Shown: positions 21,200 to 55,235 of the stretch, piece by piece
How positions within the stretch are numbered: the stretch's first letter is position 1
How the letters are laid out: each line of letters opens with the position of its first letter
From: a virus
Lineage: Duplodnaviria > Caudoviricetes
DNA length: 64,000 bases
IMG/VR virus record: IMGVR_UViG_3300037455_000173
Location: 102,593 to 166,592 of that record
Direction: 5' to 3' (one strand)
Notes under the pieces: model-generated
Told to the model about the DNA's origin: nothing
Databases searched by the model: none
Seen by the model: the letters and a program-made list of their open reading frames with translations, nothing else
Made by a program: the position numbers and the translations under genes

Positions 21200-21781
21200 T
21201 TAATCGTTTCTTACTAAGCTGTAGAACTCGTTACGTAGGTCAGAATCTGTCTTGAATACACCACGAAGAGTTGCTGTTCTTGTTTTTGTACCAGGCTTCT
21301 TAATACCACGAGCGGTCATACAAGAGTGTTCTCCCTCGATGACAACGATAATATCATTAGTACCTAAAACCTTTTCTAATACATCTGCAATATCAGCACC
21401 TATACGTTCCTGAAGCTGTAGACGTTTACCTACCATATCAGCAATACGAGCTACCTTGCTTAAACCGATTACCTTACCGTTCGGCAAGTAACCAACATGA
21501 ACCTTCATATTGTACATCAGAGCCATATGATGTTCACAGTAGCTGAAGATTGGAATGTCAGCAATGGTAACTAGGTCACCAGTTGCACCGTCCTCGAAGC
21601 ATTTATTGAACTTATCAGCTATTTCATCATTTGTGTAGCACATACCCTCGAATACTTCTGCATACATCTTTGCTACACGCTTTGGTGTGTCTTTAAGACC
21701 TTCACGTTCTGGGTTGTCACCAAGAGCAACCAGAATGTCTTTAACTGCTTTCTCGATAGCTGCTGTGTCGATTTTCTTCAT
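21200..21781 (-). CDS. folE: GTP cyclohydrolase I
   Basis: '[12 protein letters not shown]', 'CEHH', 'GLSK.AR', 'LQLQER' and 'HSCM..RG' motifs. Confidence 0.97.
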
Positions 21782-21853
21782 GTCTATTTTCCTCCTTTAC
21801 CTGTCGTTTATGAAATTCTCGTCTGATAGCCGCTTGACGCATCTTTCCACATA

Positions 21854-22558
21854 TTAGACACCACGAGCACCAGGGTCGTAGATTATTTTATGAAGCTGAA
21901 CTTGAATCTTTACATAAACCAGTCTCTTTTCGAGTAGGTACTGAACTATCTCAGCAGGCTCTATCTTACCCCATACCGGGCTTACATAGATTTGAGCATC
22001 TATTTCAGGATTAGCTTCAAGCACATCCTTCATCTGGTCTAAGTCTTCCTGACTACCTACAACAAACTTCAGAACGTCGTTCGTGTCAAGTAGCTCCAGA
22101 TTGGAAGATAACATCTTAGATGACTCACCAGAACTAATAGATTTCCAGTCCATGGTGAAGAAGTAATCCATAGAGCTCTTCTTATCAGCCTGACCGACAA
22201 TTATAGGTTCTAGGTCAATAGAGCCATTCGTCTCTATGTTTACCCAATATCCACGAACTCTAAGCTCTGATATAAGGTCACCGACGTGTTCATGTATAAG
22301 TGGTTCTCCACCTGTTAATGTTATACACTTACAGGGTTCGAACGTCTCTACTGCCAAGATTATCTCGTCTATGGACATCTTTCTGAAACCAAAACCGAGG
22401 TCGTCTAACTCAGACTTACAAGCATAAGTAGAGTCACAATAAGAACAGTCCAGGTTGCAGCCAAACAAACGAATGAATATAGCAGGAGAACCTGTTCTAG
22501 AACCTTCTCCATCTATGCTATAGAAGATTTCTGATACTGGAAATGTTATCTCATTCAT
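21854..22558 (-). CDS. queE: 7-carboxy-7-deazaguanine synthase (radical SAM)
   Basis: 'EIFYSIDGEG', 'CNLDCSYCDS', 'TGGEP', 'IETNG' and 'QLHK' motifs. Start overlaps the queD stop (TAATG). Confidence 0.95.
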   Translation of the reverse strand: MNEITFPVSEIFYSIDGEGSRTGSPAIFIRLFGCNLDCSYCDSTYACKSELDDLGFGFRKMSIDEIILAVETFEPCKCITLTGGEPLIHEHVGDLISELRVRGYWVNIETNGSIDLEPIIVGQADKKSSMDYFFTMDWKSISSGESSKMLSSNLELLDTNDVLKFVVGSQEDLDQMKDVLEANPEIDAQIYVSPVWGKIEPAEIVQYLLEKRLVYVKIQVQLHKIIYDPGARGV

Positions 22559-22953
22559 TATAGCATACCTCCTAATGTGCAACAAGCAATGTTGCCTTCA
22601 GATTCCTGAACGGTAACCTTATAGCACTTACCGTCTGCACCATCTAGGGGATTAAGTTCATCAAATTTCTTGTTCATTTCACAAAGTATCCAGGCTGCCA
22701 TATTCTCAGCTGTTGGGTTCATATCTGTGATAACATCATTGATATGATGATGGTCAAGTCTGTCTGAAATTAGATTTTTGATGTGCTTAAAATCGATAAT
22801 CATACCATTATGATTGAGGTGATTCGCTCCGCAGTAAACGGTAACAATCCAGTTATGACCATGAATGTTTCTGCACTTAGATTCATAGTCAAGAGAAAGC
22901 TGGTGAGAACCAGCTATCTCCATTCTTTTAGATATTGAATATCTGAAGTCCAT
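22558..22953 (-). CDS. queD: 6-carboxytetrahydropterin synthase
   Basis: 'C.NIHGHNW', 'GMIIDF', 'LDH..IN', 'PTAEN.A' and 'V.ES' motifs. Confidence 0.95.
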   Translation of the reverse strand: MDFRYSISKRMEIAGSHQLSLDYESKCRNIHGHNWIVTVYCGANHLNHNGMIIDFKHIKNLISDRLDHHHINDVITDMNPTAENMAAWILCEMNKKFDELNPLDGADGKCYKVTVQESEGNIACCTLGGML

Positions 22954-22956
22954 AAC

Positions 22957-23661
22957 TCATACCTCCACCTTAATAGCAGGGTCTATTGCGTTATTAGCAG
23001 AAAATGCCTTTGCTCTGTCAATGCAGGTACCACATTTACCACAAGGTCCAGCTTCACCACCATTATAGCAGCTCCAGGTATACTCATAAGGAACCTTAAG
23101 CTCAAGACCTTTCTTTACTACTTCAGCTTTACTCGAACCAGCAAATGGTGCTTTAAGGGTTACCTTACCGTAGGTACCTATACCTATAGCATCATTCATA
23201 GAATCAATGAATTCCGGCGAGCAGTCAGCGTATGCATTACCTGCCGCGTCATCTGCATGAGCTCCGATATAGATATATACTTCTTCATCAGGATACACAG
23301 AAGCTGCTACAGAAGCTGCTGTAGAAAGGAACAAGCCGTTCCGAAAGGGGACATAGGTAGCCACCATACCATTTTCACTTCTGCCAATCTGGTCAGCATA
23401 GTCACCTTCAGGAACTGCTTCTGTAGAATTCTGAAGTAAAGGACAATTACTATACTGGAAAATTGCTGACAAATCCAACTCGATGTGCTTTACATTGTAA
23501 TGGTTAGCAACCGTAGTTGCTGCTTCCAGCTCACGCTTATGTCTCTGTCCATAGAACATAGATACTGATGTAACATTGGCAGCACCAAGCTCGTGTACTG
23601 CTAAACCAAGACAAGTGGTACTATCTATACCACCTGAACTAAGAACGATTGCCTTAGGCAT
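22957..23661 (-). CDS. queC: 7-cyano-7-deazaguanine (preQ0) synthase
   Basis: 'SGGIDS', 'YGQRH..E', 'TYVPFRN' and 'TWSCY.G...CGKCGTC' motifs. Confidence 0.97.
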
Positions 23662-24160
23662 CGTAAGTCACCTTCCTTTCCGCTGCTGACTGAAGAACTG
23701 CCAGACGTCTCTGAGTTTCAAGGTCCTTGAACTCAGGGTGGTCAGGGTGAACATATGTAGAGAACGGAAAGATTGCGATACCTCCTCTAGGTGCAAAAAT
23801 ACCACGAACTTCAAGGTACTTAGGCTCCATCAGCTTAACCAGGTCTTTACAAATCTGATTTACGCAGTCTTCATGGAATGAACCATGATTACGGTAACTG
23901 AAGAGATAAAGTTTAAGTGATTTAGACTCTACCATTCTTTCACTCGGTATATAGCTGATTATAATCTTTGCCATATCAGGCTGTCCAGTCTTAGGACACA
24001 ATGCTGTAAACTCATAGGCGTCAAATGTAACCACATAATCCTGGTCTGGGTGTTTATTTATAAACGTCTCTAGAACACCTGGATTATATTCGGTTTCATA
24101 TTTAGTATTCTGATTACCTAATAAGGTAACACCTTCTAATTCTTTTTCTGTACGAGCCAT
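23654..24160 (-). CDS. queF: NADPH-dependent preQ0 reductase (type I QueF)
   Basis: Catalytic 'CPKTGQPD', QueF motif 'ESKSLKLY', 'FHE' and 'PRGG'. Confidence 0.95.
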
Positions 24161-24162
24161 AA

Positions 24163-25398
24163 TTAAGCCTCCTCACCTTTAAACTCGCCGTCTTTGAGAT
24201 ATTCTTTCCAGCTGTGTCTCTTGATAAGCATACCATCACCGAAGCTCATGAAACGATATCTCTTATCTACTGCGTGCTTATATGCTGTCATGATTTCGTC
24301 ATAACCAGCAACAACAGATACGAGCATCATAAGAGTTGTCTCAGGTGCGTGGAAGTTAGTGATAAGACCGTCTATGCAGTTTACACGTTCAGCTGTTTCA
24401 GAACCAGGATAAATAAAGATGCTGGTGTCTGTAGAGAATTCTGCAGGATTCTCCCAAACCTCAGGAGGAATAGAAGCAAGTGTACGAAGTGAAGTTGTAC
24501 CCACTGCTACTACATTATGTCCTTCCTTATGTGCCTGCTTAATGTCCTTTATAACATTTACAGGACAGAAGCAATGCTCTGTATGCATAGCGTGATTTCT
24601 GAGGTCCTTAACAACAACAGGCTTAAATGTACCAAGACCAACATCAAGTGTTACCTCTCTAACCTTTACACCCTTATCCTTGAGAGCCTGAAGTATCTCA
24701 GGAGTAAAGTGAAGACCTGCTGTCGGAGCTGCACAAGAAGTTCTTTCCTTAGCATAAACCGTGTTGTACATCTCAGAGATATACTCCTCAGAATGACCTC
24801 TACCCTGAATATACGGAGGAAGCGGTGTTTCACCTATCTTGTCAAGAACATCCCAACCAGATGAGTTAGCAAAGTCAAGAAATACTTCACCCTCATCATC
24901 ACAACTCTTAATTGTAACTTCAGCATCATCAGAACCATTAAGAACAAGAATTGTACCCTCTTCCTGAGGTTTGCTAATCATTGCCTTCCAGGTTGAACCA
25001 CCCTGATACTGAACGAACAGTATCTCTACTGTATTATCTTCATCTGCCTGTGTGCCTTTCTTGTAAGCAAAAGCACGTGCAGGAATTACCTTTGTGTTAT
25101 TAAGAACGAGCACGTCACCCTCGTTGAAGTAATCACAGATATCTGTGAAGTGTTTGTCTGTAAGTGCTACTGCAGGACCTTCACCTGTAGCTTCAACCGT
25201 TGTGTCTACAATAAGACACCTTGCACTTGCTCTGTCAGGAAGAGGCTCCTGAGCGATAAGCTCCTGAGGAAGGTCATAACGATAATGAGCAGCAGAGAAC
25301 TGCTCTTCTGCTGGGGCTGTATCAAGTCCCTTAGCGGTTACTGTGCTAGAATTACTGAATATATCAGGTATTCCAGTTTCCATTTTGTTTGTGTTCAT
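24163..25398 (-). CDS. queA: QueA-family SAM-dependent ribosyltransferase-isomerase (divergent)
   Basis: '[12 protein letters not shown]', 'N.TKVIPAR', 'PLPPYI', 'AAPTAGLHF', 'VGLGTF.P', 'VGTT', 'TNFH.P' and 'YRF.SFGD' motifs. Confidence 0.93.
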
Positions 25399-25646
25399 GA
25401 TAGTTTAGTCCTTTCATATAGTATCGATTTTAACTTTAGCAAGGGGATACCTTACTTACTGCTCCCGTTTTTACCGAGGGGGAACTCTACTCGTGAATTA
25501 TACACTCATATTCCCATCACCTCACACGTAGCACGCTAACGCATGCTATACGGTTGTATAATGTGTATAACATTACAACCTCATATATAAATACACGCAG
25601 AACCTACGCATATCATACGCAATTAATGTATAGTTACATAATATTA

Positions 25647-25678
25647 AGTATACAATAACTATACGACGACACACGAAG
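25647..25678 (-). promoter_or_regulatory. Phage promoter motif CTTCG-N21-TATACT (que operon)
   Basis: CTTCGTGTGTCGTCGTATAGTTATTGTATACT on the minus strand. Confidence 0.65.
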
Positions 25679-25679
25679 T

Positions 25680-25910
25680 TTATGTTCTTTTTGCTGCACC
25701 CGAACCGTCTTTACCATCTTGGTCTTGCTTAATAAACTTCTGTATCAGTTTTGTTCTAAATAGAACTGGTTGGTCTTCTACATAGTCTGCAGTATAACCC
25801 TGACAACGTGCTAATATACAACGTATTTCAGAATCAACTCTGTCATAACTATTTCTTAGGATTTGCCAATAGAGATTTCCATTCTTTGATGTCTTCTTTG
25901 GTCGGTCGAA
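25680..25910 (-). CDS. C-terminal extension of the tail chaperone (+1 frame, probable frameshift product)
   Basis: Open +1 frame beginning TTC GAC at the TTT CGA site, with no own RBS or start. 'YTADYVEDQPVLFRTKLI' resembles gpGT-type C-termini. Confidence 0.55.
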   Translation of the reverse strand, partial: FDRPKKTSKNGNLYWQILRNSYDRVDSEIRCILARCQGYTADYVEDQPVLFRTKLIQKFIKQDQDGKDGSGAAKRT

Positions 25911-26637
25911 AGTAGTAGTCATTGACTGGTACGTATGCCCACGCACGACCTCCACATTTCGGACACTTGAACTCTACCTTATTGCTTAAACCTACATTAA
26001 AGGCTTCTTTATATCTAGATTCAATCAAGTCTGCATCTATTGCCGACAGGTTACCTAACCAATCGCAGGCTTCTGAAATATCTATAAAGTCCATATCGGA
26101 AACAGAAGAAAGTGAAGCTGCTAGTGGTCTGAAATCTTCTACTTCTTTGTTAACCTTAGCTGTATAGAATAGCATATCCTGACAACGGTTTAAATGCAGT
26201 TTAACGTCTGCTTCTAGGAACATAAATTCCTCAGACTTTATCGTGACTGTTCTTTTAAGCTCCTCACCCTTATCAGGACGAAGTACACCAACATTAGATA
26301 GATTAACCTGCTTAGGTTCATTATAGAACTTACCCGGTAAATCAGCTTCATTCTTACAGTCTGTACACACCCACGATTGAGCTGTCCAGAAAGGTCCCCA
26401 AGTAAGTATACGCAGATGTCTTAATAATAAGAAATAATCTGGTTCGAATAGTTTAGTTACATCTATCTTAGGTTCAATAACCTGAGGTAAGATGTGCTTA
26501 ATCATAGCCTGATGCAGGTTGTCTGATGACAGCCTTAATTTTTCCATTCGACTTGTGTACGCACTTAGAGTAACAGTAGAAGGAATTCCTACGTCAGAGT
26601 AATCGTACAAAAATTCATGGTCTTCATTCATTAGCAT
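25849..26637 (-). CDS. Tail/baseplate-hub assembly chaperone (T4 gp26-like)
   Basis: 'DVTKLFEPDYFLLL..LR..TWG', two CxxC pairs and a 'YFRP' motif near the end. Confidence 0.7.
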   Translation of the reverse strand: MLMNEDHEFLYDYSDVGIPSTVTLSAYTSRMEKLRLSSDNLHQAMIKHILPQVIEPKIDVTKLFEPDYFLLLRHLRILTWGPFWTAQSWVCTDCKNEADLPGKFYNEPKQVNLSNVGVLRPDKGEELKRTVTIKSEEFMFLEADVKLHLNRCQDMLFYTAKVNKEVEDFRPLAASLSSVSDMDFIDISEACDWLGNLSAIDADLIESRYKEAFNVGLSNKVEFKCPKCGGRAWAYVPVNDYYFRPTKEDIKEWKSLLANPKK

Positions 26638-26703
26638 TAAATCAACACCTTTCTAAGTTTGATAGAAAATGCGTGTACCGTAATTATTATTACTCACATA
26701 ACG

Positions 26704-26735
26704 AGTATAACATATACAGCACACGCACTTCGAAG
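26704..26735 (-). promoter_or_regulatory. Phage promoter motif CTTCG-N21-TATACT (chaperone)
   Basis: CTTCGAAGTGCGTGTGCTGTATATGTTATACT on the minus strand. Confidence 0.65.
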
Positions 26736-29700
26736 TTAGTTTAAGGTTTCTTCCGGGTCAGGATATAGCTGAGTGTATGGTATAGTATTAGACATCGAGT
26801 TATCATCAAGCCTAATAACCTGTACCGGTGCTCTAAATCTAAGATTTGTAAAGTTCTGCTTATATACATCTGGAGAAGAATTCTTCATGTATAAATTCAG
26901 ATAAACCTTACCTCCTCTTGTCTTAGCACTTGAAGGATTGCCATTGTATTCCCAGTTCAGGTTAACGAGTAGATTACCATTAGGTACGAATGTTGTATTA
27001 TTAGCATCATAGGATTGATGTACACCTGAGGTGCCTGTAACCTTTAGATTCAGGTTATCTGGTATATCCAATCTAGTTTTCTGATTAACAACAATCGTAT
27101 TAGAGTTTTCAGTAGTTTCAGGTTCTACCTCACTTGTCTGGTCTGCTGCTACCTGTGTCTCACTGGTAGTATACTCAAAGAATAATGGTGGGAAGTTCAG
27201 ATATTTTAATGAAGCCCACATTCTATCGATATTTCCATTATAATCTGACCAACCTTCATGCTTAACCCAAACATCAAGCATAGCAGAACTAATACCCTTT
27301 TCACCCATAGTTACGCTAGCAAATCTACAAGACAAGCTGTTAGCTTTTACAGTGGTAAATAGGTCATTATATATCATCCATGGTAAGTCAAGTTCAAGTG
27401 TATTACCGCCGGTTAAGAACTCAGAATATTTCCACTCGCCGATGTTAATGAAGAACGGTGAGTTTACCTTACAATGGTTTACACCGAACAGTAATGAGCT
27501 TGTAGGCTTTGTGCTATCACCCTTAAGAGTTAGATAATCGATATCTTCTAGGTGTAATAGTAAGCCGTCACTATACGTACCGTCGACAGTTACATCTGTG
27601 AAGTCTAGAGTAATATCACCCCTTAGATGAGCTAATGTTCCGGAAGCTGCTCTCCACTCAGAAGCCCTACCAGTCATCTTAAACACTACACCTGCCGGAT
27701 ATCTGGTATACTGATAGTAGGTCAAATCCTCATTAGGACTTATAGATATTTCAGCAGGAGGATTAGCACCAGGTAACTTATAGCCACCATTCTTAACAAA
27801 GTCAAGAAGGGCATCGGTTACTCTTAATCTTTGTGTATTCGGGTCATTAATTATATCTTCCAATTCCGAACCGGTACCTGTACGGACAACGCCGTAAGCA
27901 TCAGCTGTAGCTGGTACAGCAAAACCACGCTCAACAGCTTCAACAACAAACAGAACGGACTGTTTACTATCAGAAGTATCTTGAAATGATTTAGATTGAC
28001 CTTCAGGGTCTAGCACTAGATAAGAATCTGGATTACTTCTAAGGAACTTTACCGGAACTAAAGAATTAGGTACTAGGTTAGTTATTAAACCGGTATCATA
28101 GTCGATATCACCTAGATACTGAGGTGTGTCTAGAACGGTAGTCATTAGCGAACCTTCACCGTCGTCATAGATAGTAGTAGTGTAGTCAAGACCTGATAAT
28201 GAGTTATGAACCGGGTGTGCTGACGTAGCGAATATACGAACTGTACCTGGTATTACAGAACCAATTCTAGATGATGTAAAATAGGTATTGATAGTTTCTT
28301 CACCAGGCATTACCGCATGAGCAAATCTCCACACTCCTGTAGCATCAGCACTACTGTCATAATAGCGACATACATATCTACTCGATACATTCTGTATGAA
28401 AGAATTTAATGAACCGGTTACTGTACCGCTTACAGTAGCGTTAATAGTACCCGTACCTGTACCAGCTACTTCACCTTCTACAGCTGTTTCTTCTGCATCA
28501 TCCATATGACCTGTTACGGTACCGGTTACTGGTACCGTGAGCTTTGCTTGCTTTGCTGTACCTGAAACTGTACCTGAAACCGTACCATAATCTGCTATTA
28601 TATTCTGTAATGTATAACCGCCTGAGTTGGTTGTTACTTCAGTTCCACCAGCTTCAGCAGTATCATTAATAACCCAGAAATAATCACCTAAACCGACTAC
28701 TGGTGTATATCGTTCAAACCACTCCTTAGCATCTTCTAATGTTAAAAATGGACCGAACTGTCTGCCTCTAGCAAAGCCATTAGATTTACGATTAGCATAA
28801 TCGTCGAATACTAATTCTAGCATAGCAAGCTGCTGGGTGGTCATTAAACCGTCCATGCCATTTAAACCACCTAAGCTAGGATATGTATTGATGTCATATA
28901 CCGGCTTAGTTACAGTGCTATCAGGGCCTGGTGACTCCCAAACCTTGTTCAATGAGGACAACGGTGAACCAGAAGGGTTCAATGCTGCGTATGGTAGATA
29001 CAATGCACGAGCATCTATAATTCCTGAAGGTGTCTTTGCAGGAACCTGTGCTTGATGCCAGGTTACTCTAGCAAAGTCAGCAGTAGTCCTTGCATTCACC
29101 TTCTGTAAGCAGTTAAACCTGTCTACAACTGGATTATCACCTACAATAGGTGTTGCATCAGAAACGATAACACCACGAGTAGGTTTCTCGTCTAACTGAG
29201 CGTTACCAGCTGTATCTGGCTCTGTAGACATATTCCTTAATAATTGACCAAGATATGAACCGAAATGTATCCACAGCCATTGGTCAATCTTTATTAAATT
29301 GGTTACAGAACTTTCAGAAGAACCACCTGTACCATCTTTCTGTATGCCATATATAGAATCATCGTCCGGTGTGTTAATTAAATCGGAATAATTCTCAGCA
29401 CCTTCTACTCCGGTTAATGGAACAAGGCGTGACTTAGAAGGATTCTGTGTTACCATTAGACTACCATAAGCGTCTCTGGAAACAGTACCTAACAGTAATT
29501 CATTACCATACGGTAGTTCATCGTTGATAACGATGACTACGCACGGATACATACTACCTGCAGGTGGTATTAATCTTTCATCATGTCTAGCACTTTCACT
29601 CGCCGTATACTGAATAGCAAGTTTTACGAACTTTGTCCTTACTGTATCTGTATTCTGACCGGGATTATCCTTAACTTCAGCTACTTCATCAGGACTGATA

Positions 29701-30179: not shown

Positions 30180-30193
30180 GGGAAATCCCTCCC

Positions 30194-31243: not shown

Positions 31244-31847
31244 CTGATAACACTCCTTTACATTTTCTTAGGTACCATTGTACACAAGGTACCGATAATT
31301 TGGTCAATCCAGATTTATATAAATCAGTAACTTCTTTTGCAGGCATGTGGAGTTCTTTTGCAATTTCGTTTACACTCCACGGTGGCTCATCAGAAGTTCT
31401 GTTTATAACATGAAGAACACTTACTTCTTCAGGTGTTAATAGTGCTTCCATAACATCAGATATATCTGATTGCTTCTGGTCAAATGAATATGTATCCTCG
31501 ATTTGTTCTTCCATCGGTATATCAGCATCCTCACATTCAAATTCTGTAAAGGCCACTTCAGGATTAACCAGCTTATTCATTTGATTTCGGATATAGGGAA
31601 ATGCATAAGTGCTTAGAACTGCATATGTATCCGCATCAAATCTGTCGATTGCAATTATTAAGCCCATAGTGCCAGCTGACACGAGCTCCTCACAATCAGT
31701 CTCACCGGGATATCGACTTGCGAAATACATCTGGTAACATCGATGTACTAACCCTAGATTGTTAACCACAATCTTGTTTCTAATCTTTGGGTTGCGTGTT
31801 CTTGCGTATTCTTTAAGCAACTCTTGATTTTCCTGATTTCTGCTCAT
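31236..31847 (-). CDS. Phage sigma-70-family sigma factor
   Basis: Region 2 'RNKIVVNNLGLV...ELVSAGTMGLIIAIDRFD...STYAFPYIR' and region-4 HTH 'SVNEIAKELHM'. Start moved to the RBS-supported ATG. Confidence 0.85.
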   Translation of the reverse strand: MSRNQENQELLKEYARTRNPKIRNKIVVNNLGLVHRCYQMYFASRYPGETDCEELVSAGTMGLIIAIDRFDADTYAVLSTYAFPYIRNQMNKLVNPEVAFTEFECEDADIPMEEQIEDTYSFDQKQSDISDVMEALLTPEEVSVLHVINRTSDEPPWSVNEIAKELHMPAKEVTDLYKSGLTKLSVPCVQWYLRKCKGVLSDD

Positions 31848-31872
31848 ATCAACCTCACCGTCCCTCAATAAT

Positions 31873-31904
31873 ATAATAATAGATTATGTCATGATAATTC
31901 GAAG
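31873..31904 (-). promoter_or_regulatory. Phage promoter motif CTTCG-N21-TATTAT (sigma gene)
   Basis: CTTCGAATTATCATGACATAATCTATTATTAT on the minus strand. Confidence 0.55.
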
Positions 31905-33614: not shown

Positions 33615-33617
33615 AAT

Positions 33618-42540: not shown

Positions 42541-42557
42541 GTATATTCACTATATAC

Positions 42558-42589
42558 ATTATACACGATATCACCCTTAGTCATCGAAC
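42558..42589 (-). promoter_or_regulatory. Phage promoter motif TTCG-N21-TATAAT
   Basis: GTTCGATGACTAAGGGTGATATCGTGTATAAT on the minus strand. Confidence 0.65.
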
Positions 42590-42667
42590 TTTGTATAAAT
42601 TGCTTACTTGCTTTATTAAATATGTTATAACTATACACTTGTAACTACTGCATTTAAGCAATACATA

Positions 42668-43222
42668 TTAAGCAAGGTTTGCTTCAGCATGTGCTATAAT
42701 CGCATTAACGTCTTCAGAAGTAAATTCTGTCATCTCATCACTTTCGAAATATCCAAGAACGAATCTGGCAGAATCTTCTCCCTGTACCCAGTTCGTAACA
42801 AAAGCTACACCAATTGGTACATTATTCTCATCGATGATAACTGCACAGCTATATCTACCAACATCTGAACTTGTCGGTACTTCACCATCTGAAGTTATCA
42901 GATTAGAATATAGAACATCTACCGATGCTCCTTGTGCCCAACCTTCTTGCTGCCTTACACTCAGGATACAGCCTGTCTGTGGCATAGCTGCTCCATTAGG
43001 ATTAATAAGAATAGGTCTACCATTAACATCACCGATGTAGAACTCACCTGTGTCCAGTATTACTGCTGGTTCGCCAGGATAGAGTTTCATCAGATTTCGA
43101 TGTTCTGATAGACCTCGCTTAAATTGTATTAAATCATAACCTTCTTCATTTCTTGCTAATGATAGTAGCCATGTACAGCCTTTACAGCACTTTCTACCTG
43201 CAGTTGATAGAATGTATTTCAT
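42668..43222 (-). CDS. Protein with Mtd_N/hyaluronidase-like fibre domain
   Basis: 'IQFKRG......L.PGEP....DTGEFYIGD' motif. Confidence 0.6.
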   Translation of the reverse strand: MKYILSTAGRKCCKGCTWLLSLARNEEGYDLIQFKRGLSEHRNLMKLYPGEPAVILDTGEFYIGDVNGRPILINPNGAAMPQTGCILSVRQQEGWAQGASVDVLYSNLITSDGEVPTSSDVGRYSCAVIIDENNVPIGVAFVTNWVQGEDSARFVLGYFESDEMTEFTSEDVNAIIAHAEANLA

Positions 43223-43267
43223 GTTATCACCTCCTACTTAATCTAATATAGAAGGTTAACTCAACTA

Positions 43268-45482: not shown

Positions 45483-45500
45483 GTAATCGCCCCCTAATTA

Positions 45501-46670: not shown

Positions 46671-47215
46671 TAGAATACCTCCTTTACCTTTGCATCTCTA
46701 GCTATTCTGTACATAACACTACCCGCACAATTTAATGGGTCTGTCATTGATGTAGTCACCACTGTTATACATGATTTATTCTGACGTGCATCATATATTG
46801 CCTGTAGCATTAAATCATCGAGTTGAGTAAGATAAGAAAAAAGTCCGTCGAGTATTAGGCACCTTGCATTAACGGCACGTCTAACCATCATCTGGACTTC
46901 ATTATCTCTATTAAATCTATCTTGTGTTCTATTTTGATAACACAGCTGATTAACCGACACGTACAAACCTATATCCTGGGTATCAGTGAAACCTCTACAC
47001 GCATTAAGATAAGATAACAATATTACAGCTGCATTTGAGGTCTTACCTCTTTTTAAACCACTCAACAATACAACACCATTAAAGGTAGTTATATTGTTAC
47101 AAAGCTGGACAATATTAGGTCTAACATACTCCTTCGGTATGTTCTGTAACTTCTCTGGTAACTCTGATTTACGAAGCAGAGTATCATAGACATCATAGGT
47201 AAGCTCATTGTTCAT
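46670..47215 (-). CDS. DnaC/IstB-like helicase loader (divergent)
   Basis: 'LLSG...GKT', 'LILDGL' and 'YDAR....TVVTT' motifs. Position upstream of the helicases. Confidence 0.6.
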   Translation of the reverse strand: MNNELTYDVYDTLLRKSELPEKLQNIPKEYVRPNIVQLCNNITTFNGVVLLSGLKRGKTSNAAVILLSYLNACRGFTDTQDIGLYVSVNQLCYQNRTQDRFNRDNEVQMMVRRAVNARCLILDGLFSYLTQLDDLMLQAIYDARQNKSCITVVTTSMTDPLNCAGSVMYRIARDAKVKEVF

Positions 47216-47624
47216 TGCTACCGAGCTCCTCTCTTAGTATAGCTAAAGTCTCAGGATTGTTCTTGATATCATTCCAATATGGGTCTTGATAATATGACAT
47301 ATTTGCATACATCTTATCCTGTTCTGATGTAAACACAATATGATTCCATTTTCTAGCCGTAGCTGTAAGGAATAGATAAGTAAGTTCAGGAATTGTAATA
47401 GTACTCTTTTTCGAGATTTTTCTAACTCTTGATTGTGTTGAGTCTGCTATCTCATACACATTCAGAACGTCATCTAAGCAAGAATCCCAATCATTAATAC
47501 TTAATTCCGGATTCTTACCTATTCTCATTTCAAGATACCCTGCTGCTGCTTCTAACAACCTTTGGTCTTTTGGGAACCTACTCAAGACATGTGACCAATA
47601 AGGCTGTGGTAAGTTGTTTCTCAT
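47205..47624 (-). CDS. Hypothetical protein (first gene of the helicase/primase operon)
   Basis: ORF with an RBS, overlapping the loader gene. Confidence 0.55.
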   Translation of the reverse strand: MRNNLPQPYWSHVLSRFPKDQRLLEAAAGYLEMRIGKNPELSINDWDSCLDDVLNVYEIADSTQSRVRKISKKSTITIPELTYLFLTATARKWNHIVFTSEQDKMYANMSYYQDPYWNDIKNNPETLAILREELGSNEQ

Positions 47625-47789
47625 AACTACAAAAATCCTTCGTGTATTTCTTTAAAATGCTTGTGTTATGCGTTTGTTTGCGTACAGAGTCTGTGTTAAT
47701 GTGTATACAGTTATTAAACAATAAACAATGTAGCAAAACAGTAGCGTGCTGTGTGATAATCTTACGCACACTACTATAACCACATTAAT

Positions 47790-47821
47790 ATTATAAGGTA
47801 TACGATTAACAGTTTACGAAG
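47790..47821 (-). promoter_or_regulatory. Phage promoter motif CTTCG-N21-TATAAT (helicase/primase operon)
   Basis: CTTCGTAAACTGTTAATCGTATACCTTATAAT on the minus strand. Confidence 0.65.
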
Positions 47822-48793
47822 TTACGTATACCGGGGCTTAGGATACCAATACGCATTAGCTACCGGACTAATATCTGATTTACCTATACGCCTAAATTTA
47901 CCTGATTTTGTATATACAATAGGTACACCATCTGCATATAATGGTACGCCAAGAGCTATTAGATACTCTACCGGTACAGTTACATAACCAGGTACTTTAA
48001 TACTTTGCTGCTGAGCGAACACAGAATTTTGTGGATTCTGAGCTAATTGTCTGGCAACTGATAACGGCATCATTAATCTTGTAGATTTCATTAGCATAAG
48101 GTCTGGAGTACCTGTACCAGACATTTCTAAATCAGTTTCCACAGATTCCACAAGGTTTTCAACACCTACCGAAGGCGATTCAACACTGGTTTCAACATTC
48201 TCAACACTAACCGGTTGAGGTTCCTCATGGTTACCTGTTTTCAGGTTAGCTGGTATACTCTTCATACGCTCAGTAACCTGATTAATAGATTCCTGAATTC
48301 TGGGTATGACATTATAACTCAAATCAGCATACTCAGCAGAACCTTCATCTGAGTTTGGATTAATACAATGCTGTTTCCATAACTCTTCTCGTCTAGCATT
48401 TGCCCTGTCTAACTCAGCTTTAAGTTGACTTTGTTCTCTGATAGCTTTACCTGTTTCTATCAAACTGTCGACAGTTTGATATCCTTCTGCATTATATTGA
48501 CTATGTGCCCAAGCTATAATTTCTTCATCTGTAGCATTTTGGAACATATAAGATGTTATTACCTTATTGCTGTAAGAACCCTGCATAGCATTCTCGATAT
48601 AATTTTCTAATAGGTTAGCTAAATCAGGTAAAGAGTCCTCAACTGGATTTATAATAACAATAGGTCTTCCTTCAATTCCTTGCTGCTGGAATACATACAA
48701 TAACTGCTCTAATGTATCAGCGTGTGTTACAGGACTACCTAATGTAAATATCTTATTCTGTATCTGTATCTGGCTTTGATTGGTCAGCTCCAA
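47822..48793 (-). CDS. Hypothetical protein
   Basis: 323-aa ORF in the operon, with a coiled-coil centre. Confidence 0.6.
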   Translation of the reverse strand: MELTNQSQIQIQNKIFTLGSPVTHADTLEQLLYVFQQQGIEGRPIVIINPVEDSLPDLANLLENYIENAMQGSYSNKVITSYMFQNATDEEIIAWAHSQYNAEGYQTVDSLIETGKAIREQSQLKAELDRANARREELWKQHCINPNSDEGSAEYADLSYNVIPRIQESINQVTERMKSIPANLKTGNHEEPQPVSVENVETSVESPSVGVENLVESVETDLEMSGTGTPDLMLMKSTRLMMPLSVARQLAQNPQNSVFAQQQSIKVPGYVTVPVEYLIALGVPLYADGVPIVYTKSGKFRRIGKSDISPVANAYWYPKPRYT

Positions 48794-48968
48794 CTACCTC
48801 ACCTCGTTTCTCACCAACTCTACGTACACGGCTACGTCTGTGTCTAGCCATGCATACATCACCAGCTTCCTGATTTATAGAGCCGTGGTTTTTTAATGGA
48901 CGCCCACAGTACCTGCAGTATCCGGTATTATTATTCTGTTGTCCAGAAGGGTTCGTAAAATGGTACAT
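48753..48968 (-). CDS. Small Zn-finger protein (DUF6011-like)
   Basis: 'CRYCGRPL....SI...G.VC' motif and GGAGG RBS. Confidence 0.65.
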   Translation of the reverse strand: MYHFTNPSGQQNNNTGYCRYCGRPLKNHGSINQEAGDVCMARHRRSRVRRVGEKRGEVVGADQSKPDTDTE

Positions 48969-49837
48969 ACATAAACCTCCAATCCAGTCAACGCATCACG
49001 TTCACTTACCTTGATTTGTTTTCTGAACTTTAATCCTAATTTGTAAAGATATACCCACTCTACCCAAGGTATGTTGTGCAAACCTCTACCCTGAAAGTTT
49101 GTGTATACAGCTTTAACTAAACCACCCTTATCCCAATAATCTTTACCACATGAGACAAAACGCATTATTTGTTCTAACCATCTAAATATAGAAGCATAGA
49201 CAAAGAATTCATTACCTCTCTGAGCTTCTAGATATGTGAATATAAATGTAAAATCACCATCAAGAATAGCATCACAGAACGGACCTGGTTCCTCACTTAT
49301 CTCTGATTGCATCCAGGGCTTAAAATATTGATTAAACGCGTCTAAGTCAGACACACCTAATGACTCAGCTAAGTCTAATACTTGCAAACCGAACAATCTC
49401 ATATTAGCTGGCGTGTCTAGATTATTCTTCATATGCTCTATTATGCTAGGACTTAGCTTCTTCTTGGTTAGAATATTAGAAGCTTGTGCCCAGGTCAAAT
49501 CTTCTATAACCAGTACATTGCCTTCAAAAAACTCAACAGTCTTCTCTGGTATATTCTTTATAGAAGTATACAGATAAACCACTGTTCTATTTGTAGGCTT
49601 ATACTCAGGTTTTGGATTAGACAAGATTTCAGAGTCATCTGTCAGGACTAAAATCTGATTAGCATTTATAAATCGTGCTTTTGATTTAAAGTCGATTGAC
49701 TCTACAAATGTCGGTGTAGCATTATGAGCTTTACAGAACTGTTTTAGATAGAGTGTCCTAAGGTCATAATCATTTGCCATCAGAACAAACACATTCGGTG
49801 GATTTTTCATAACATCCTTAAACTCAGCTAATGTCAT
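48893..49837 (-). CDS. Clamp-loader delta (HolA)-like subunit
   Basis: Size and position after the dnaX- and holB-like genes. Weak sequence resemblance only. Confidence 0.5.
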   Translation of the reverse strand: MTLAEFKDVMKNPPNVFVLMANDYDLRTLYLKQFCKAHNATPTFVESIDFKSKARFINANQILVLTDDSEILSNPKPEYKPTNRTVVYLYTSIKNIPEKTVEFFEGNVLVIEDLTWAQASNILTKKKLSPSIIEHMKNNLDTPANMRLFGLQVLDLAESLGVSDLDAFNQYFKPWMQSEISEEPGPFCDAILDGDFTFIFTYLEAQRGNEFFVYASIFRWLEQIMRFVSCGKDYWDKGGLVKAVYTNFQGRGLHNIPWVEWVYLYKLGLKFRKQIKVSERDALTGLEVYVCTILRTLLDNRIIIPDTAGTVGVH

Positions 49838-50604
49838 TTACAAGCCACCTCTTTCCACAATTCTGCATAGAAGTATGCGATAATATACCTATCCAACTCA
49901 GACAAATTCTGTGATAGAATAGAAAAGCTTTCTGTATTCGAATAAAATCCCTTAGCCAATAGAAAGAAGTAATATACATCTACATCTTGTTCTTTCATAT
50001 ACTTACCTAGCATGTTAACTCGATTAAGAGTTAGCGCTAATGAGGACTTGATAGCAGCACCTATTTCAGTCATCTGCTGTATCATATCAGGTAACGCTTG
50101 ATACCCTTGCCAACCAATCAGATGTTCTAATTGACCAGGTGTCTCAACAGCTTTACTAATAATATTGATATACTGCTGAACTTGTGCTCTTTCTGAATCT
50201 ACACAGATACTCATAATCTGTTCTGGTGTATATCTATCCAATGTATAAGTAACACACCTTGACTTGATTGTAGGAAGAATTGTATTACTCGCTGTTAGAC
50301 AAAACCTTGCTTTCATTGGTGGTTCTTCAAGTACCTTCAATAATAAATTCTGAATAGCAGGACGTAACTGGTCTATATCAGGTATAAGATACATTATCGG
50401 ATTTGTCTGTGTACGAATAAAATCAAGTGTCTCTCTGAAATCATTTACCGTTCCTGAAACTTCATACACATATAAACCCATCTCACTATATATCTTTCTA
50501 ATAATAGTTTTCTTACCAGCATGAGGTGGTCCTTCCACTAGAATAGCTCTAGCGTTTGATTCTCTAAGACTTTTAACTAACTTCTCCTGACCAATAATAT
50601 CCAT
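49834..50604 (-). CDS. Clamp-loader delta' (HolB)-like subunit
   Basis: 'IIGQE', 'GP...GKK', 'NLLLKVLEEPP' and 'ILPTIKSRC' motifs. Confidence 0.8.
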   Translation of the reverse strand: MDIIGQEKLVKSLRESNARAILVEGPPHAGKKTIIRKIYSEMGLYVYEVSGTVNDFRETLDFIRTQTNPIMYLIPDIDQLRPAIQNLLLKVLEEPPMKARFCLTASNTILPTIKSRCVTYTLDRYTPEQIMSICVDSERAQVQQYINIISKAVETPGQLEHLIGWQGYQALPDMIQQMTEIGAAIKSSLALTLNRVNMLGKYMKEQDVDVYYFFLLAKGFYSNTESFSILSQNLSELDRYIIAYFYAELWKEVACK

Positions 50605-51605
50605 TAGAAGTCACCTGCCATTTTTAGAAAGTTTACCTTTACCATGGTGTATGTGTCTGACTCCATAATTATTCTTTGTACCAAATCATCTAATGAACAT
50701 AGTGTCTGGAACAACCTACCATCTTTCGGGAGTGTTAATAACTCTTGACATACTTCTGTAGGCAAAGCAACATTATCAGGTGCTACACCTAATTGTAACT
50801 CAACCGTTTGCAGAACGAAACGTCTAAAGTCTTGTACCCACGCTTTAAAGTCAACACCAGACTTATTACTGTTGTCTAATATCTCTATTAGCTTTGTAAA
50901 GTCATGTGCATAGAACGCCTTCAGTACACCAATAGATACATCAAAACCGACAAGTCCTAAAGCTGTATTAATAATCTCGAAATTAATATCAACACCATAA
51001 CCTAGCACTTTATCCATCATTGTAATAGCATCACGCATACCACCATTGGCAAGCTGAGCTATATAACGTAACGGTTCTCTAGGAACACCTGTTATCTGTT
51101 CTTGTTCTAGTATCCAAAGGAGTCTATCAGTAACTCCGTCTACATCTATTCGAGTGAAGTCCAATCTCAAACATCTTGAAGTAATCGTGTTTGGAATTTT
51201 TCTAGGGTCTGTTGTACAGAACAATAATATAACTGACTCTGGTGGCTCTTCTACTAATTTAAGCAGAGCATTCCAAGCCTGTACCGTTAGCATATGACAC
51301 TCATCTAATATGAATATCTTATACTTTGTACCTATTGGCTTATGTCTTGCATCTGATATTATCTTACGTACACCATCAACACCTGTATTATCAGCAGCAT
51401 TGATTTCATAGATATTTGATTGACCATTTAATTCATGTGCAAATATACGAGCACAGGTTGTCTTACCGGTTCCTGCCCCGCCTGAAAATATATATGAAGC
51501 TTTTGGCTTATTTGCTAGATGTGTTCTAAGAACTTTCTTAGCGCCTTCTTGACCGACGACATCATCTAATTTAGTCGGTCTATATATAGCAGCTAGATTA
51601 CGCAT
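50604..51605 (-). CDS. dnaX: Clamp-loader gamma/tau ATPase subunit
   Basis: 'YRP...DDVVGQ', 'GTGKTT.AR', 'DECHML', 'NALLK..EEPP', 'SRC' and 'GGMRDA' motifs. Lacks the usual 4-Cys Zn module. Confidence 0.9.
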   Translation of the reverse strand: MRNLAAIYRPTKLDDVVGQEGAKKVLRTHLANKPKASYIFSGGAGTGKTTCARIFAHELNGQSNIYEINAADNTGVDGVRKIISDARHKPIGTKYKIFILDECHMLTVQAWNALLKLVEEPPESVILLFCTTDPRKIPNTITSRCLRLDFTRIDVDGVTDRLLWILEQEQITGVPREPLRYIAQLANGGMRDAITMMDKVLGYGVDINFEIINTALGLVGFDVSIGVLKAFYAHDFTKLIEILDNSNKSGVDFKAWVQDFRRFVLQTVELQLGVAPDNVALPTEVCQELLTLPKDGRLFQTLCSLDDLVQRIIMESDTYTMVKVNFLKMAGDF

Positions 51606-51650
51606 AATCTACCTCCTCTGTTTTATAAATTAAAAGCACAGGCGAACATA

Positions 51651-52127
51651 TCAGTCCACCTGTGCTAACTTTTCCTCGACAACGTCAAGTAATGTTTCTA
51701 GATACCAGTTCGTACGCTTTTGATACAGATTAAGTTCTATACCTACTCTCTCTAGGTCGGCTACCGTAACAGATTTCTTACCCGCGGCGTAGTACAAATC
51801 TAATTGTAACGGAGATACCCAGAATGCTCTGTTCTCGCATAGCATCCAGATAACATATCCAGCCCTTACTCCTGGAAATTTATCTTTCTTTAACATCTCG
51901 AACCATTGGTACTCATCTATATTCTGAAGCATATTAAATGTGCTAGACGCACACTCTTTACATTCTATGTAATAGATATGTGGATAGATGTATGCGTCGT
52001 AATCACAAACATTCTTAGAACCTTTTAGATGTGAAACTTGGTCATGAATACGGTCATAACAGATGTGATTACTTTCTAACCACTCTTCGACGATTCCTTC
52101 CCATTCCTTACCACGGTTCTCAGCCAT
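51651..52127 (-). CDS. RecU-like Holliday junction resolvase
   Basis: 'NRGKEWE', 'CDY' and 'IECKE' motifs. Start overlaps the clamp stop. Confidence 0.75.
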   Translation of the reverse strand: MAENRGKEWEGIVEEWLESNHICYDRIHDQVSHLKGSKNVCDYDAYIYPHIYYIECKECASSTFNMLQNIDEYQWFEMLKKDKFPGVRAGYVIWMLCENRAFWVSPLQLDLYYAAGKKSVTVADLERVGIELNLYQKRTNWYLETLLDVVEEKLAQVD

Positions 52128-53176
52128 TATACAATAAGACCAATTGAAGTAGTAACAGGACCTACACAAGCAAGCTGACTCTCATAAACGTCCAGCTGAA
52201 CCATACCGTCATATGCTGCAAAACGAGCATTAGCACTCATACAGTCTACCTCAACAGACCAAGGTCCATTACCTGCGATAGACTTACAAGGTACCTTCTG
52301 AATACTATCAGCACACTTAAGAATAAGTTCTTCAGGTGCCTCCTGGCATACAGTAACGCTGTAATCATTTGCTGCATCAGCTACGATAGCAAGGAACTGC
52401 ATTGAATTCAAGAACGAACTCATGTCAACCTGTACCGAATGTAGCACCTCATTTGCGAACTCAGCTTTGAGTCCCTCAAGTGGGAACTGAGGAATGAAGT
52501 CCTGGAACACCTTTGAGAATCTTGCTGATGAACCAGACTCTTCTGATACAAACCAGAAATACTCTGGACCTGCATCATAAATCTGAACATCAGAATGCTT
52601 AGAGCAGTAGCTTACCATTCTTGCTGAGAGAAGAATTGGTGTATTGACAAGTGAATCACCCTTGCTGATGTTTACTTCATCTGTAGCATAAGAGCACTCT
52701 CCGTCTGTATATACACAACGCTCTGCAATTGAATCCATTGTCTTAGATAATGTACCAGTGAGCATTTTAAGCTGATTAAGATGGTCAACCTTAAGTTGCT
52801 CACCAGACTTTGTACAAAACTCATGTGCAGCTCTATTTCCAGCATCGTCTACGAGAATAGGAAGTTTCAGAGTACCTTTTGCATTCTTAACAAGAAGAGT
52901 ATCTTCTGTAGCTGTAAGCTCGACGTCAGACTCACAGAATGAGACTGCCTTAGTGAACTTTGCTCCATCTACTGAAACTGTTGGAAATGCTTCTGTTGTA
53001 GAGCCTACCTTAGCTCCGTACCATACCTCACCGTCATCTGGCTCTGTAATAAGATACAGGTTACCATCTGCAACGTGAAGTGTAATTGTGGTTGCTAAGA
53101 TAACGTATGAATTGGGTGTTAAACCTTCTGCTACAGCCGCGAGTGCTGTATTCAGGTTTTCTTTCTTACAAATCAT
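52127..53176 (-). CDS. Sliding clamp (DnaN/beta-like)
   Basis: 349-aa acidic three-domain size, 'YATDE' motif, and position between SSB and the clamp-loader genes. Confidence 0.6.
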   Translation of the reverse strand: MICKKENLNTALAAVAEGLTPNSYVILATTITLHVADGNLYLITEPDDGEVWYGAKVGSTTEAFPTVSVDGAKFTKAVSFCESDVELTATEDTLLVKNAKGTLKLPILVDDAGNRAAHEFCTKSGEQLKVDHLNQLKMLTGTLSKTMDSIAERCVYTDGECSYATDEVNISKGDSLVNTPILLSARMVSYCSKHSDVQIYDAGPEYFWFVSEESGSSARFSKVFQDFIPQFPLEGLKAEFANEVLHSVQVDMSSFLNSMQFLAIVADAANDYSVTVCQEAPEELILKCADSIQKVPCKSIAGNGPWSVEVDCMSANARFAAYDGMVQLDVYESQLACVGPVTTSIGLIV

Positions 53177-53197
53177 TATTTTTACCTCTCAATCGTT

Positions 53198-54046
53198 TTA
53201 GTTCTGAGGATTCTGAGACCAAGCTCCCTGTGGAGCTGAGCCCCAACCCTGCTGCTGAGGCTGTGCCTGAGCTGTCTGTCCCCAACCCTGCTGTGGTGCA
53301 GCATTCTGCTGAGGCTGTGGAGCTGGAGCATTCTGCTGTGGAGCTGAACCCCAACCCTGCTGTGGTGCAGGCGGTGCGCCCCAACCCTGCTGAGGAGCCT
53401 GTCCCCAACCCTGCTGAGGAGCCTGGTTCTGTGCCCAAGCATTCTGCTGAGGAGCCTGTCCCTGCTGTGCTTCAACCTGAACCTGCTCTTCCTGAGCTGC
53501 TACAGAACGTGCCTTAATCTCTGCATACTTGTCTGCAGGACGAACATAGTTAGTACAAACCTCATCACACTGAGCTACAAGCTCCTTATACTGCTCTTCG
53601 GTTATTCCACTATCGCCTATAGGCATTACTGAATACTTTGTATTAAGACCAGTTCCGTTACGAGTAATTTCAACCTTCTGCTTGTAGAGAGGATTATGAT
53701 AATGAATAAGACCAGCTAAATCCTTACGGTATGATGCTGGCTTGTCCCAAATCATAACTTTACCTGTAGCTACGTCGAGCATACGAACAAATACTCTTGT
53801 TGACAGTGCTTCACCTGCCTGACACGCAGGACACATATCAACAGGGTCCTTTGGGCCTCTAGGGCAATCTACTGTATAGGTGTAGTAGTTTGCACCAGGA
53901 AGTCTGTGTACTGCCCAACCATCAACGCTTGCTTCATCAGTGTAAAGAAAGACTACTTGCTTTCTTCCGCCGTCTTGTTCGATACGAAAAGTTTCGGCGC
54001 CTTGATATTCCATTGATTTTGATTCTTCCGCTGTATAGCGTGCCAT
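53198..54046 (-). CDS. Single-stranded DNA-binding protein (gp32-like) with Q/P/G/W repeat tail
   Basis: H...C...CPAC Zn motif, 'ITRNG.GL.T.Y', and C-terminal APQQGWG repeats. Confidence 0.75.
   Translation of the reverse strand: MARYTAEESKSMEYQGAETFRIEQDGGRKQVVFLYTDEASVDGWAVHRLPGANYYTYTVDCPRGPKDPVDMCPACQAGEALSTRVFVRMLDVATGKVMIWDKPASYRKDLAGLIHYHNPLYKQKVEITRNGTGLNTKYSVMPIGDSGITEEQYKELVAQCDEVCTNYVRPADKYAEIKARSVAAQEEQVQVEAQQGQAPQQNAWAQNQAPQQGWGQAPQQGWGAPPAPQQGWGSAPQQNAPAPQPQQNAAPQQGWGQTAQAQPQQQGWGSAPQGAWSQNPQN
53213..53470 (-). repeat. Coding repeats CAGCAGGGTTGGGG (QQGWG) and CAGCAGAATGC (QQNA)
   Basis: Five QQGWG units and three QQNA units. Confidence 0.9.
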
Positions 54047-54178
54047 AAAAATTCCTTCTTTCTGTTTTTTAATTTTTGGTACTTGGTGTTTTGTTTTCTT
54101 TTATTTTTCATTCAATCAAGCAAGACTAATGTAAGCATCATCCAAGCCGCGGTTGTCTGATGTAAACATTACATTCTT

Positions 54179-54209
54179 ATTGTAACACAAAACTTCGTTT
54201 AATACGAAG
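54179..54209 (-). promoter_or_regulatory. Phage promoter motif CTTCG-N20-TACAAT (SSB/clamp operon)
   Basis: CTTCGTATTAAACGAAGTTTTGTGTTACAAT on the minus strand. Confidence 0.65.
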
Positions 54210-54227
54210 ATGTGTGTTTACCTAACC

Positions 54228-55235
54228 TTATAGACCTATACGACGTGCTGCTTTTGGCAGTCCGACAAAATCAGTGGTCTCTAGATAACGAATCATACTA
54301 GATGCATTAAACATCTGACGCATTGCAATACTGTTGGTTATATCCTCAGTACCGTCATCTAGAATTTCATCTGTGTCTCTTGTTGGGTCTATCTTTTTGA
54401 GTTTTTCTGTCGAGAAGCCTGCGTCTTCAATTAATCTGCATACTTCCTTCTTTGCTTCTTCACCTAACCAACAGAAATGGTCAGCTGCACCTGTAGTTCT
54501 CTCACCTACGTTCATTGCTGCTAACTTATTATGTCTATGTACAAGAATTGTACCATAGATTGCTCCCTTTAGCCATGTAGTAGAGTCAACAGAGGTAAAA
54601 TCAATATACTGAAGAATATTCAGAGCTGTCATACCAAATCCGTGTGTCTTAACATTAGGATTAGATGATTTCTTAATACGCCTGAATACTTCTTTACAGA
54701 ATATAAGACGCTTATCAGTGGTTGTTTCTGTATGTGGTGAAATTCCAATATATTGTAATGAATTTCCATCTGCATCTCTGTACTCCAGCATATTCTCAAG
54801 CCACTTGAAATCTTCTCCTTCATGGAAAACAGGAATAAACCTATCCCATAAGCTCTTATCAATTCGGTCTCTCATATGCAAGAAGTTCTCCCAGGATATT
54901 CTAGGAGCATCAAGATAAACCTGTTTATCCTGAACAACATTTGATTTACCTGGAATGTAATCCACCTGTACCATTACATCGAAATACTTACCGTTTTCAT
55001 TCAGATAAGCAATATAATCGTCCAGGTCGATTTCCTTCCCCTTTGTGTACGCTGAGAACGCACCTGAGTCAACGAACAGTTTCATACCAGGATGCTCATC
55101 TTTATAACTCATCCAACGCTTTAAACGTGAACGGTCATTCAACTGCGAGAACAGTCTGTTGTATCCTTCTTTAACCAAATACTCATCAACTGCCTGCGGT
55201 GCACTACCTGCAAAATATAACTGCGTGTTTAGCAA
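54228..55235 (-). CDS. dpdA: DNA 7-deazaguanine transglycosylase (TGT-fold, DpdA-like)
   Basis: 'LYFAG', 'LFVDSGAFS', 'IPVFHEGE', 'HGFG' and 'SVDSTTW' motifs of phage DpdA-type proteins. Lacks the tRNA-TGT Zn site. que genes are in the same genome. Confidence 0.85.
   Translation of the reverse strand: MLNTQLYFAGSAPQAVDEYLVKEGYNRLFSQLNDRSRLKRWMSYKDEHPGMKLFVDSGAFSAYTKGKEIDLDDYIAYLNENGKYFDVMVQVDYIPGKSNVVQDKQVYLDAPRISWENFLHMRDRIDKSLWDRFIPVFHEGEDFKWLENMLEYRDADGNSLQYIGISPHTETTTDKRLIFCKEVFRRIKKSSNPNVKTHGFGMTALNILQYIDFTSVDSTTWLKGAIYGTILVHRHNKLAAMNVGERTTGAADHFCWLGEEAKKEVCRLIEDAGFSTEKLKKIDPTRDTDEILDDGTEDITNSIAMRQMFNASSMIRYLETTDFVGLPKAARRIGL

Follow-up and report, generated by a model that had tools for sequence, protein, structure and literature searches.

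We analysed a 64-kb window (bases 102593-166592) of the 166,592-bp IMG/VR record IMGVR_UViG_3300037455_000173, a phage genome that CheckV rates as complete and whose two ends repeat each other. Within this window, six tightly packed minus-strand genes run from position 25398 to 21200 in the order queA-queF-queC-queD-queE-folE, each matching its family (Table 1), and a gene for a DpdA-type DNA guanine transglycosylase lies 29 kb from this operon. A first-pass annotation made from the sequence alone had described the same operon and had credited its QueF with a true NADPH motif, and family searches place all six genes on the minus strand exactly where that annotation had them. Besides matching TIGR03139, QueF has both motifs expected of the family in its translation: CPKTGQPD at the catalytic site and ESKSLKLY, of the NADPH type. 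We take the catalytic cysteine motif, together with an E(S/L)K(S/A)hK(L/Y)(Y/F/W) NADPH motif, to be what distinguishes QueF from QueF-L, and because both motifs are present, the enzyme is predicted to reduce preQ0 (7-cyano-7-deazaguanine) to preQ1 (7-aminomethyl-7-deazaguanine) rather than to make an amidine.

Within the replication block, dpdA is located between a gene for a 524-aa protein, which precedes it, and the genes for the single-stranded DNA-binding protein, clamp and clamp loader, which follow; its earlier identification as a DpdA-type enzyme of the replication region is upheld by its PHROG family, its match to the enzyme of Streptococcus phage Dp-1 and its predicted fold. The open reading frame (ORF) has no Pfam or NCBIfam match, and so none to PF01702, the tRNA-type tRNA-guanine transglycosylase (TGT) family, and its closest relative among 50,697 phage records is the Dp-1 enzyme (38% identity over 98% of length). 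For the AlphaFold2 model (predicted local distance difference test score, pLDDT, 90.3), the top Foldseek match is 7ui4, the solved DNA preQ0 insertase DpdA (E 2.4e-6, TM 0.55), by a small margin over TGTs and Cap10, which score similarly next. Copies 90-91% identical were present in 5 of the 5 complete relatives tested, and the QueA-associated DpdAs (at least 50% identity) have insertions in common that are absent from Dp-1-like DpdAs.

The system is a variant of known 7-deazaguanine DNA-modification systems with a distinctive phage QueA. This protein is a full-length match to its family above the curated equivalog cut-offs, and its top sequence and fold matches are 1yy3 and 1vky. Its AlphaFold2 model (pLDDT 91.9) has the two-domain fold of an alpha/beta domain with an inserted beta-barrel, and at E <= 0.001 Foldseek returned only the QueA structures 1yy3, 1vky and 1wdi. 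When 11 phage QueAs were placed in a tree with 67 cellular sequences, they grouped in a single phage-only clade (Shimodaira-Hasegawa approximate likelihood-ratio test, SH-aLRT, 100) whose stem is 0.57 substitutions per site long. The clade retains 69 of the 73 compared positions that are near-invariant in cellular QueA and replaces the other four (Q212N, G220T, H252D and L351A, each in 10-11 of the 11 phage sequences). At the N terminus, members of the clade also share a conserved stretch of ~35 residues that cellular QueAs lack. This extension includes a DDIFS motif, which reads PDIFS in this phage, and is disordered in the model, with a pLDDT of ~50 against more than 90 for the core. No other phage protein has DDIFS at a terminus. 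We considered DDIFS as a sliding-clamp-binding peptide, and a complex prediction of QueA residues 1-45 with the beta-clamp-like protein (52127-53176) gave no answer and is not used as evidence here. Pairwise ratios of nonsynonymous to synonymous substitution (dN/dS) for queA are 0.04-0.07 (~0.05), with synonymous sites near saturation; queA is under strong purifying selection.

Close relatives of this QueA are numerous: over 100 protein clusters are 82-94% identical to it, and the contigs that encode them reach ~160 kb. Eight IMG/VR relatives keep the queA-queF-queC-queD-queE-folE order, 7 of them together with the two genes that follow the operon here, a phosphoribosyltransferase (PRT)-fold gene and nrdD; across these eight, QueA is 85-93% identical, compared with 58-73% for QueE and ~60% for the PRT-fold protein. 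A second tier of ~20 clusters at ~50% identity comes from other phage contigs, which share the replisome and other genes of this phage at 33-70% identity. When 1.84 billion cluster representatives were searched, two phage-type QueA clusters scored 842 and 350 bits; a third match at 338 bits (P0241) is a QueA of the cellular type that contains an internal duplication, and the remaining cellular QueAs scored at most 269 bits. Outside the close clade, IMG/VR gave five QueA matches at 39-42% identity that lie near contig ends, most of them without the extension. We rejected as phage QueAs all 22 tblastn matches in cultured-phage records (27-64% identity), which align only from about residue 17-48 onwards and lack the extension. 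Among them, the annotated one that was checked (H9) lies on a mislabelled bacterial contig, within a queA-tgt-yajC-secDF set of bacterial genes, and another (H2) comes from an UNVERIFIED_ORG record.

Relatives also reveal how queA and dpdA are arranged with respect to each other. In contigs L023 and L024 (110.6 and 65.7 kb), a dpdA whose product is 55% identical to the one here is directly followed by queA and then by a gene of the Vut_1/YhhQ family, the family of preQ0/preQ1 transporters, with a PRT homologue four genes further on. A 41.5-kb contig instead carries a dpdA-queF-queC-queD-queE-folE-Vut_1 array with queA elsewhere on the same contig, and L025 has the same dpdA-que-Vut_1 array. 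The slot after dpdA is thus occupied by que genes in some members of the group and by queA in another, and in this phage the whole set, with queA, is clustered elsewhere.

Searches of the whole 166.6-kb genome gave no match to tRNA-type TGT (PF01702), QueH (PF02677) or QueG (TIGR00276), and the complete bacterial tRNA-queuosine set (TGT and QueG or QueH with QueA) was not found in it; TGT is also missing from the 5 complete relatives searched. There are no tRNA genes in the 64-kb window, and the whole genome has only Glu-UUC, Gln-UUG and Leu-UAG, with no GUN-anticodon tRNA across the complete 166,592 bp. The first-pass annotation had listed tgt, queG/queH and tRNAs as missing from the window, which the searches confirm, and had asked whether tgt or GUN tRNAs might be encoded in the rest of the genome, where none occurs. 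Unaided, the phage can thus produce no nucleic acid carrying preQ1 other than DNA. Pfam models for S-adenosylmethionine (SAM) synthetase, Vut_1, TAGT and GT2 likewise matched nothing in this genome. CCA-ending hairpins at genome positions 87365-94153 were considered as an alternative QueA/TGT substrate and rejected, their loops lacking U-G-U at anticodon-like positions 33-35.

On balance, we think it more likely than not that DpdA inserts preQ1 into DNA and that QueA converts it to an epoxyqueuosine-type base. In this scheme, FolE, QueD, QueE, QueC and QueF would make preQ1 from GTP, DpdA would put preQ1 in place of guanine in the phage's DNA, as happens in Dp-1, whose DpdA is the nearest characterised one, and the phage QueA would transfer the ribosyl of SAM onto the 7-aminomethyl nitrogen of preQ1 and isomerise it. 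The product would be a bulky 2'-deoxy-epoxyqueuosine-type base shielding the DNA from host nucleases and, because the phage lacks an epoxyqueuosine reductase, would end as the epoxide or a further elaboration of it, unless host QueG or QueH acts. We favour such a base because DNA is the only nucleic acid to which the phage could add preQ1 without help, because QueA, whose known chemistry decorates preQ1 carried by a nucleic acid, is kept in a DNA module under strong selection and with lineage-specific changes, and because the enzymes DpdM and DpdN offer a precedent for tailoring an inserted base. We infer that DpdA uses preQ1, that the substrate of QueA is DNA-borne (or free) preQ1 and not tRNA, and that the role is anti-restriction. 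The proposal that QueA acts on 2'-deoxy-preQ1 (dPreQ1) in DNA goes back to the first-pass annotation; it gains real comparative support from dpdA-queA adjacency in a sister lineage, the features of the phage-only clade and purifying selection, and it is still something we infer for an enzyme whose core is close to that of tRNA-acting QueA.

Several points count against this proposal. We know of no QueA-family enzyme that acts on DNA or on a free base, and the catalytic core here is nearly unchanged from tRNA-acting QueA. A host TGT is presumably present, and phage-made preQ1 would enter host tRNA too. The contigs with QueA all come from a single broad phage group, so the co-occurrence of queA with dpdA reflects one acquisition, long kept and repeatedly re-linked since, and not an association that arose several times over. 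The main rival is that QueA acts on host tRNA, with host TGT loading phage-made preQ1 onto GUN tRNAs, phage QueA driving it towards queuosine and host QueG or QueH finishing the task; decoding of NAU-rich phage genes would thereby be tuned, and DNA would receive preQ1 only. The nearly unchanged core and the entry of phage-made preQ1 into host tRNA both leave room for it. To our knowledge, tRNA is the only substrate of the QueA family, and the phage protein both exceeds the tRNA-enzyme equivalog cut-offs and keeps nearly all of the near-invariant positions. Phage genes do favour NAU over NAC codons (59-74%), but this preference is no stronger than that of other U/C codon pairs (51-68%), and therefore codon usage does not separate the two explanations. 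The phage, however, encodes neither the preceding tRNA step (TGT) nor the following one (QueG/QueH) nor any GUN tRNA, queA in L023 lies between dpdA and the precursor transporter gene, and the clade-specific extension and four replacements suggest an altered partner or substrate, all of which leads us to regard a host-tRNA role as possible but doubtful.

QueA might alternatively act before insertion, converting free preQ1 (or a nucleotide form of it) to an epoxyqueuine-like base that this DpdA subclade inserts directly, much as eukaryotic TGT inserts queuine. This would fit the insertions that set QueA-associated DpdAs apart from Dp-1-like ones and the PRT-fold protein that travels with the module, but those insertions have no assigned role and no QueA is known to use the free base, and we consider this order of events improbable; it would yield the same DNA end product as insertion followed by QueA, the order of steps alone differing. 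Still less credible, and in our view very unlikely, is a QueA unrelated to base modification, which would either consume SAM to blunt SAM-dependent host defences or be a neutral passenger. In its reaction QueA releases adenine and methionine from SAM, and the genome has no SAM synthetase, but one preQ1 acceptor is needed per SAM, which makes QueA a poor SAM-depleting enzyme. A passenger role is ruled out by the low dN/dS and by retention across deep divergence, and the placement of queA varies yet stays within the deazaguanine module.

If QueA does build its ring on DNA-borne preQ1, further decoration is conceivable. A candidate GT-A glycosyltransferase encoded in the window gives weak glycosyltransferase signals, among them Atlas leads (0.94) pointing to clusters of TAGT and GT2. 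It has a paralogue at genome positions 7929-8852 (39% identical), and L023 carries a tandem pair (1235-2125 and 2143-3048); these GT-A-like proteins have no relative among the 50,697 cultured-phage records and are specific to this phage group. The proposed QueA reaction would leave hydroxyl groups to which this protein could attach sugars, and it could in that case belong to the system. A sugar-decorated queuosine-type base, with preQ1 inserted by DpdA, an epoxy-cyclopentanediol ring built by QueA and sugars added to the ring hydroxyls by the two GT-A-like paralogues, seems to us rather unlikely. Animal tRNA carries mannosyl- and galactosyl-queuosine, of which such a base would be the DNA counterpart.

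Table 1 Genes and sequence elements of the 7-deazaguanine module and its surroundings (positions in the window)
Feature	Position	Strand	Description
queA	24163-25398	-	411 aa; SAM ribosyltransferase-isomerase; NF001140 368.9 bits (cut-off 324), TIGR00113 340 (cut-off 267), PF02547 353
queF	23654-24160	-	unimodular preQ0 reductase; TIGR03139 161 bits (cut-off 87)
queC	22957-23661	-	7-cyano-7-deazaguanine synthase; PF06508 188 bits, TIGR00364 162 bits (above cut-off)
queD	22558-22953	-	6-carboxytetrahydropterin synthase (PTPS); PF01242 100 bits; TIGR03367 84 bits, just below cut-off 89
queE	21854-22585	-	radical-SAM 7-carboxy-7-deazaguanine synthase; PF04055; best NCBIfam TIGR03963 (QueE, Clostridial type) 229 bits, below cut-off 260
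folE	21200-21781	-	GTP cyclohydrolase I; PF01227 224 bits, NF006826 245 bits
dpdA	54228-55235	-	DNA guanine transglycosylase, TGT superfamily, Dp-1 type; phrog_887 at 2.5e-49; 38% identity to Dp-1 enzyme
524-aa protein	55229-56803	-	overlaps dpdA start codon; conserved upstream neighbour of dpdA
PRT-fold protein	20108-21052	-	314 aa, directly after folE; PF00156 at 1.3e-8
nrdD	17870-20074	-	anaerobic ribonucleotide reductase; downstream of PRT gene, same strand; PF13597 635 bits
candidate GT-A glycosyltransferase	61719-62627	+	302 aa; weak phrog_2456 match over NRN...DDD region
extended -10-like GTGTATAAT	25497-25505	-	putative, read from sequence; upstream of queA, just downstream of GA/TC-poor island 25509-25678
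extended -10-like GTGTTATAAT	56857-56866	-	pattern match; upstream of 524-aa/dpdA operon

Among the neighbours of the module, the PRT-fold protein is divergent, with weak matches to both HGPRT and phosphoribosyl pyrophosphate synthetase, and its homologues are found close to queA or dpdA in L009, L023 and the 41.5-kb contig; one idea is that it salvages guanine released by DpdA. A strong terminator-like hairpin (17281-17316) lies downstream of the ORF at 17340-17873, the next after nrdD. Neither Pfam nor PHROG gives a match for the 524-aa protein, which has homologues just ahead of dpdA in L023, L025 and L026 and may be a partner of DpdA. With respect to transcription, the first-pass annotation had placed the operon and dpdA behind one phage promoter motif, and this holds only loosely: the sequence before the dpdA operon is GTGTTATAAT, which is also found upstream of the PRT gene, as against GTGTATAAT before queA, and the exact promoter-like pattern occurs 3 times where 0.9 are expected, a count that 9 of 100 shuffles reach. 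No preQ1 riboswitch was found in the queA leader: the window has no Rfam match at the gathering score, and Rfam on positions 25350-25900 returned only a chance miRNA match at E 6.9.

We also observed intergenic islands of ~150-250 bp that are poor in GA/TC, located in the window at 25509-25678, 17159-17348, 42549-42698 and 47639-47868, with ~19 more elsewhere in the genome. The depletion is most marked for this dinucleotide pair, with 15 windows of 150 nt at z < -3 compared with 0-8 for every other pair; the islands have 15-37-nt boxes in common, and the one just upstream of queA is kept in 7 of the 8 relatives. These islands could be modification-free regulatory zones, GA and GGC being published DpdA targets, although an equally good explanation is that the depletion may be inherited from a repeated regulatory element.

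The operon itself shows signs of insertion in other genomes. Two close relatives have ~1.2-kb insertions between queC and queE (L002:11197-12397 and L004), and the 41.5-kb contig of the distant relative encodes an HNH domain fused to FolE, which together suggest that homing endonucleases have moved through the que operon. Separately, an HD-domain gene follows queA in the second-tier contigs L009, L011, L022 and the 41.5-kb contig, either directly or past one to five ORFs, and in two of these four queA comes after a DUF3310 gene that is itself downstream of SbcCD. This genome has its HD homologue outside the window, at 83430-83990.

As for provenance, the public run that best matches the record comes from bovine gut and may be the metagenome from which it was assembled, and other public runs of bovine and goat gut metagenomes contain small shares of the record's words. 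No RNA dataset was among the public runs listed for the operon. The best cultured-phage matches of the DnaB-like helicase are Clostridium phages at ~27% identity, and a 979-aa phage protein has no match. These data place the host no more closely than as an anaerobe of the ruminant gut.

These observations extend a body of work in which the known 7-deazaguanine derivatives of phage DNA all stop at or near preQ0 or preQ1. An earlier survey found no QueA, QueG or QueH homologue in any virus analysed and did not detect deoxyqueuosine (Hutinet 2019, PMC6884629), and a later study raised the known derivatives to eight with no mention of QueA (Cui 2023, PMC10516641), in agreement with the first-pass annotation's statement that described derivatives do not include a QueA product. 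Our own full-text searches of the literature turned up no description of natural DNA that contains a deoxyqueuosine-type base. Retention of queA within the module points to a ninth, much bulkier base, and the phage group that keeps its own QueA in a DNA-modification module is widespread in gut and rumen. If the proposal is true, this would be the first use of queuosine ring chemistry on DNA, adding to the known DNA hypermodifications and giving a textbook tRNA enzyme a further class of substrate, and the epoxide or diol could provide a chemically reactive DNA handle useful to biotechnology and to work on anti-restriction. The definition of the genes is sufficient for heterologous expression without culturing the phage.

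Among known systems, the module of Dp-1, in which DpdA is encoded with FolE, QueD, QueE, QueC and QueF and dPreQ1 makes up ~1.7% of G (PMC6884629), is matched here by the same six gene families, including a QueF of the true preQ1-forming type. In contrast to this phage, Dp-1 and other cultured DpdA phages gave no QueA match, and the present genome is three times larger than that of Dp-1, with extra insertions in the DpdAs of its group. Escherichia phage CAjan and Pseudomonas phage iggy carry dPreQ0 at GA and GGC, or GA, motifs (PMC7544227, PMC10484667) and have in common with our proposal a DpdA-dependent, motif-specific replacement of guanine, but they go no further than preQ0 and lack both QueF and QueA. 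Compared with bacterial QueA, the phage protein is a full-length match with the same two-domain fold and the same 69 near-invariant positions, whereas its phage-only clade on a long stem, its disordered N-terminal extension and its four replaced residues set it apart, as does its genomic company, which includes a DNA transglycosylase gene but no tgt, queG or queH. The nearest parallel for the chemistry comes from DpdM and DpdN, which tailor dPreQ1 in DNA after insertion by adding a methyl or a formyl group, respectively (PMC10516641). In both cases insertion by DpdA is followed by decoration of the 7-aminomethyl group in DNA by another enzyme, as proposed here; the difference is that our proposed decorator is QueA, which would add a C5 epoxy-cyclopentanediol in place of a one-carbon unit.

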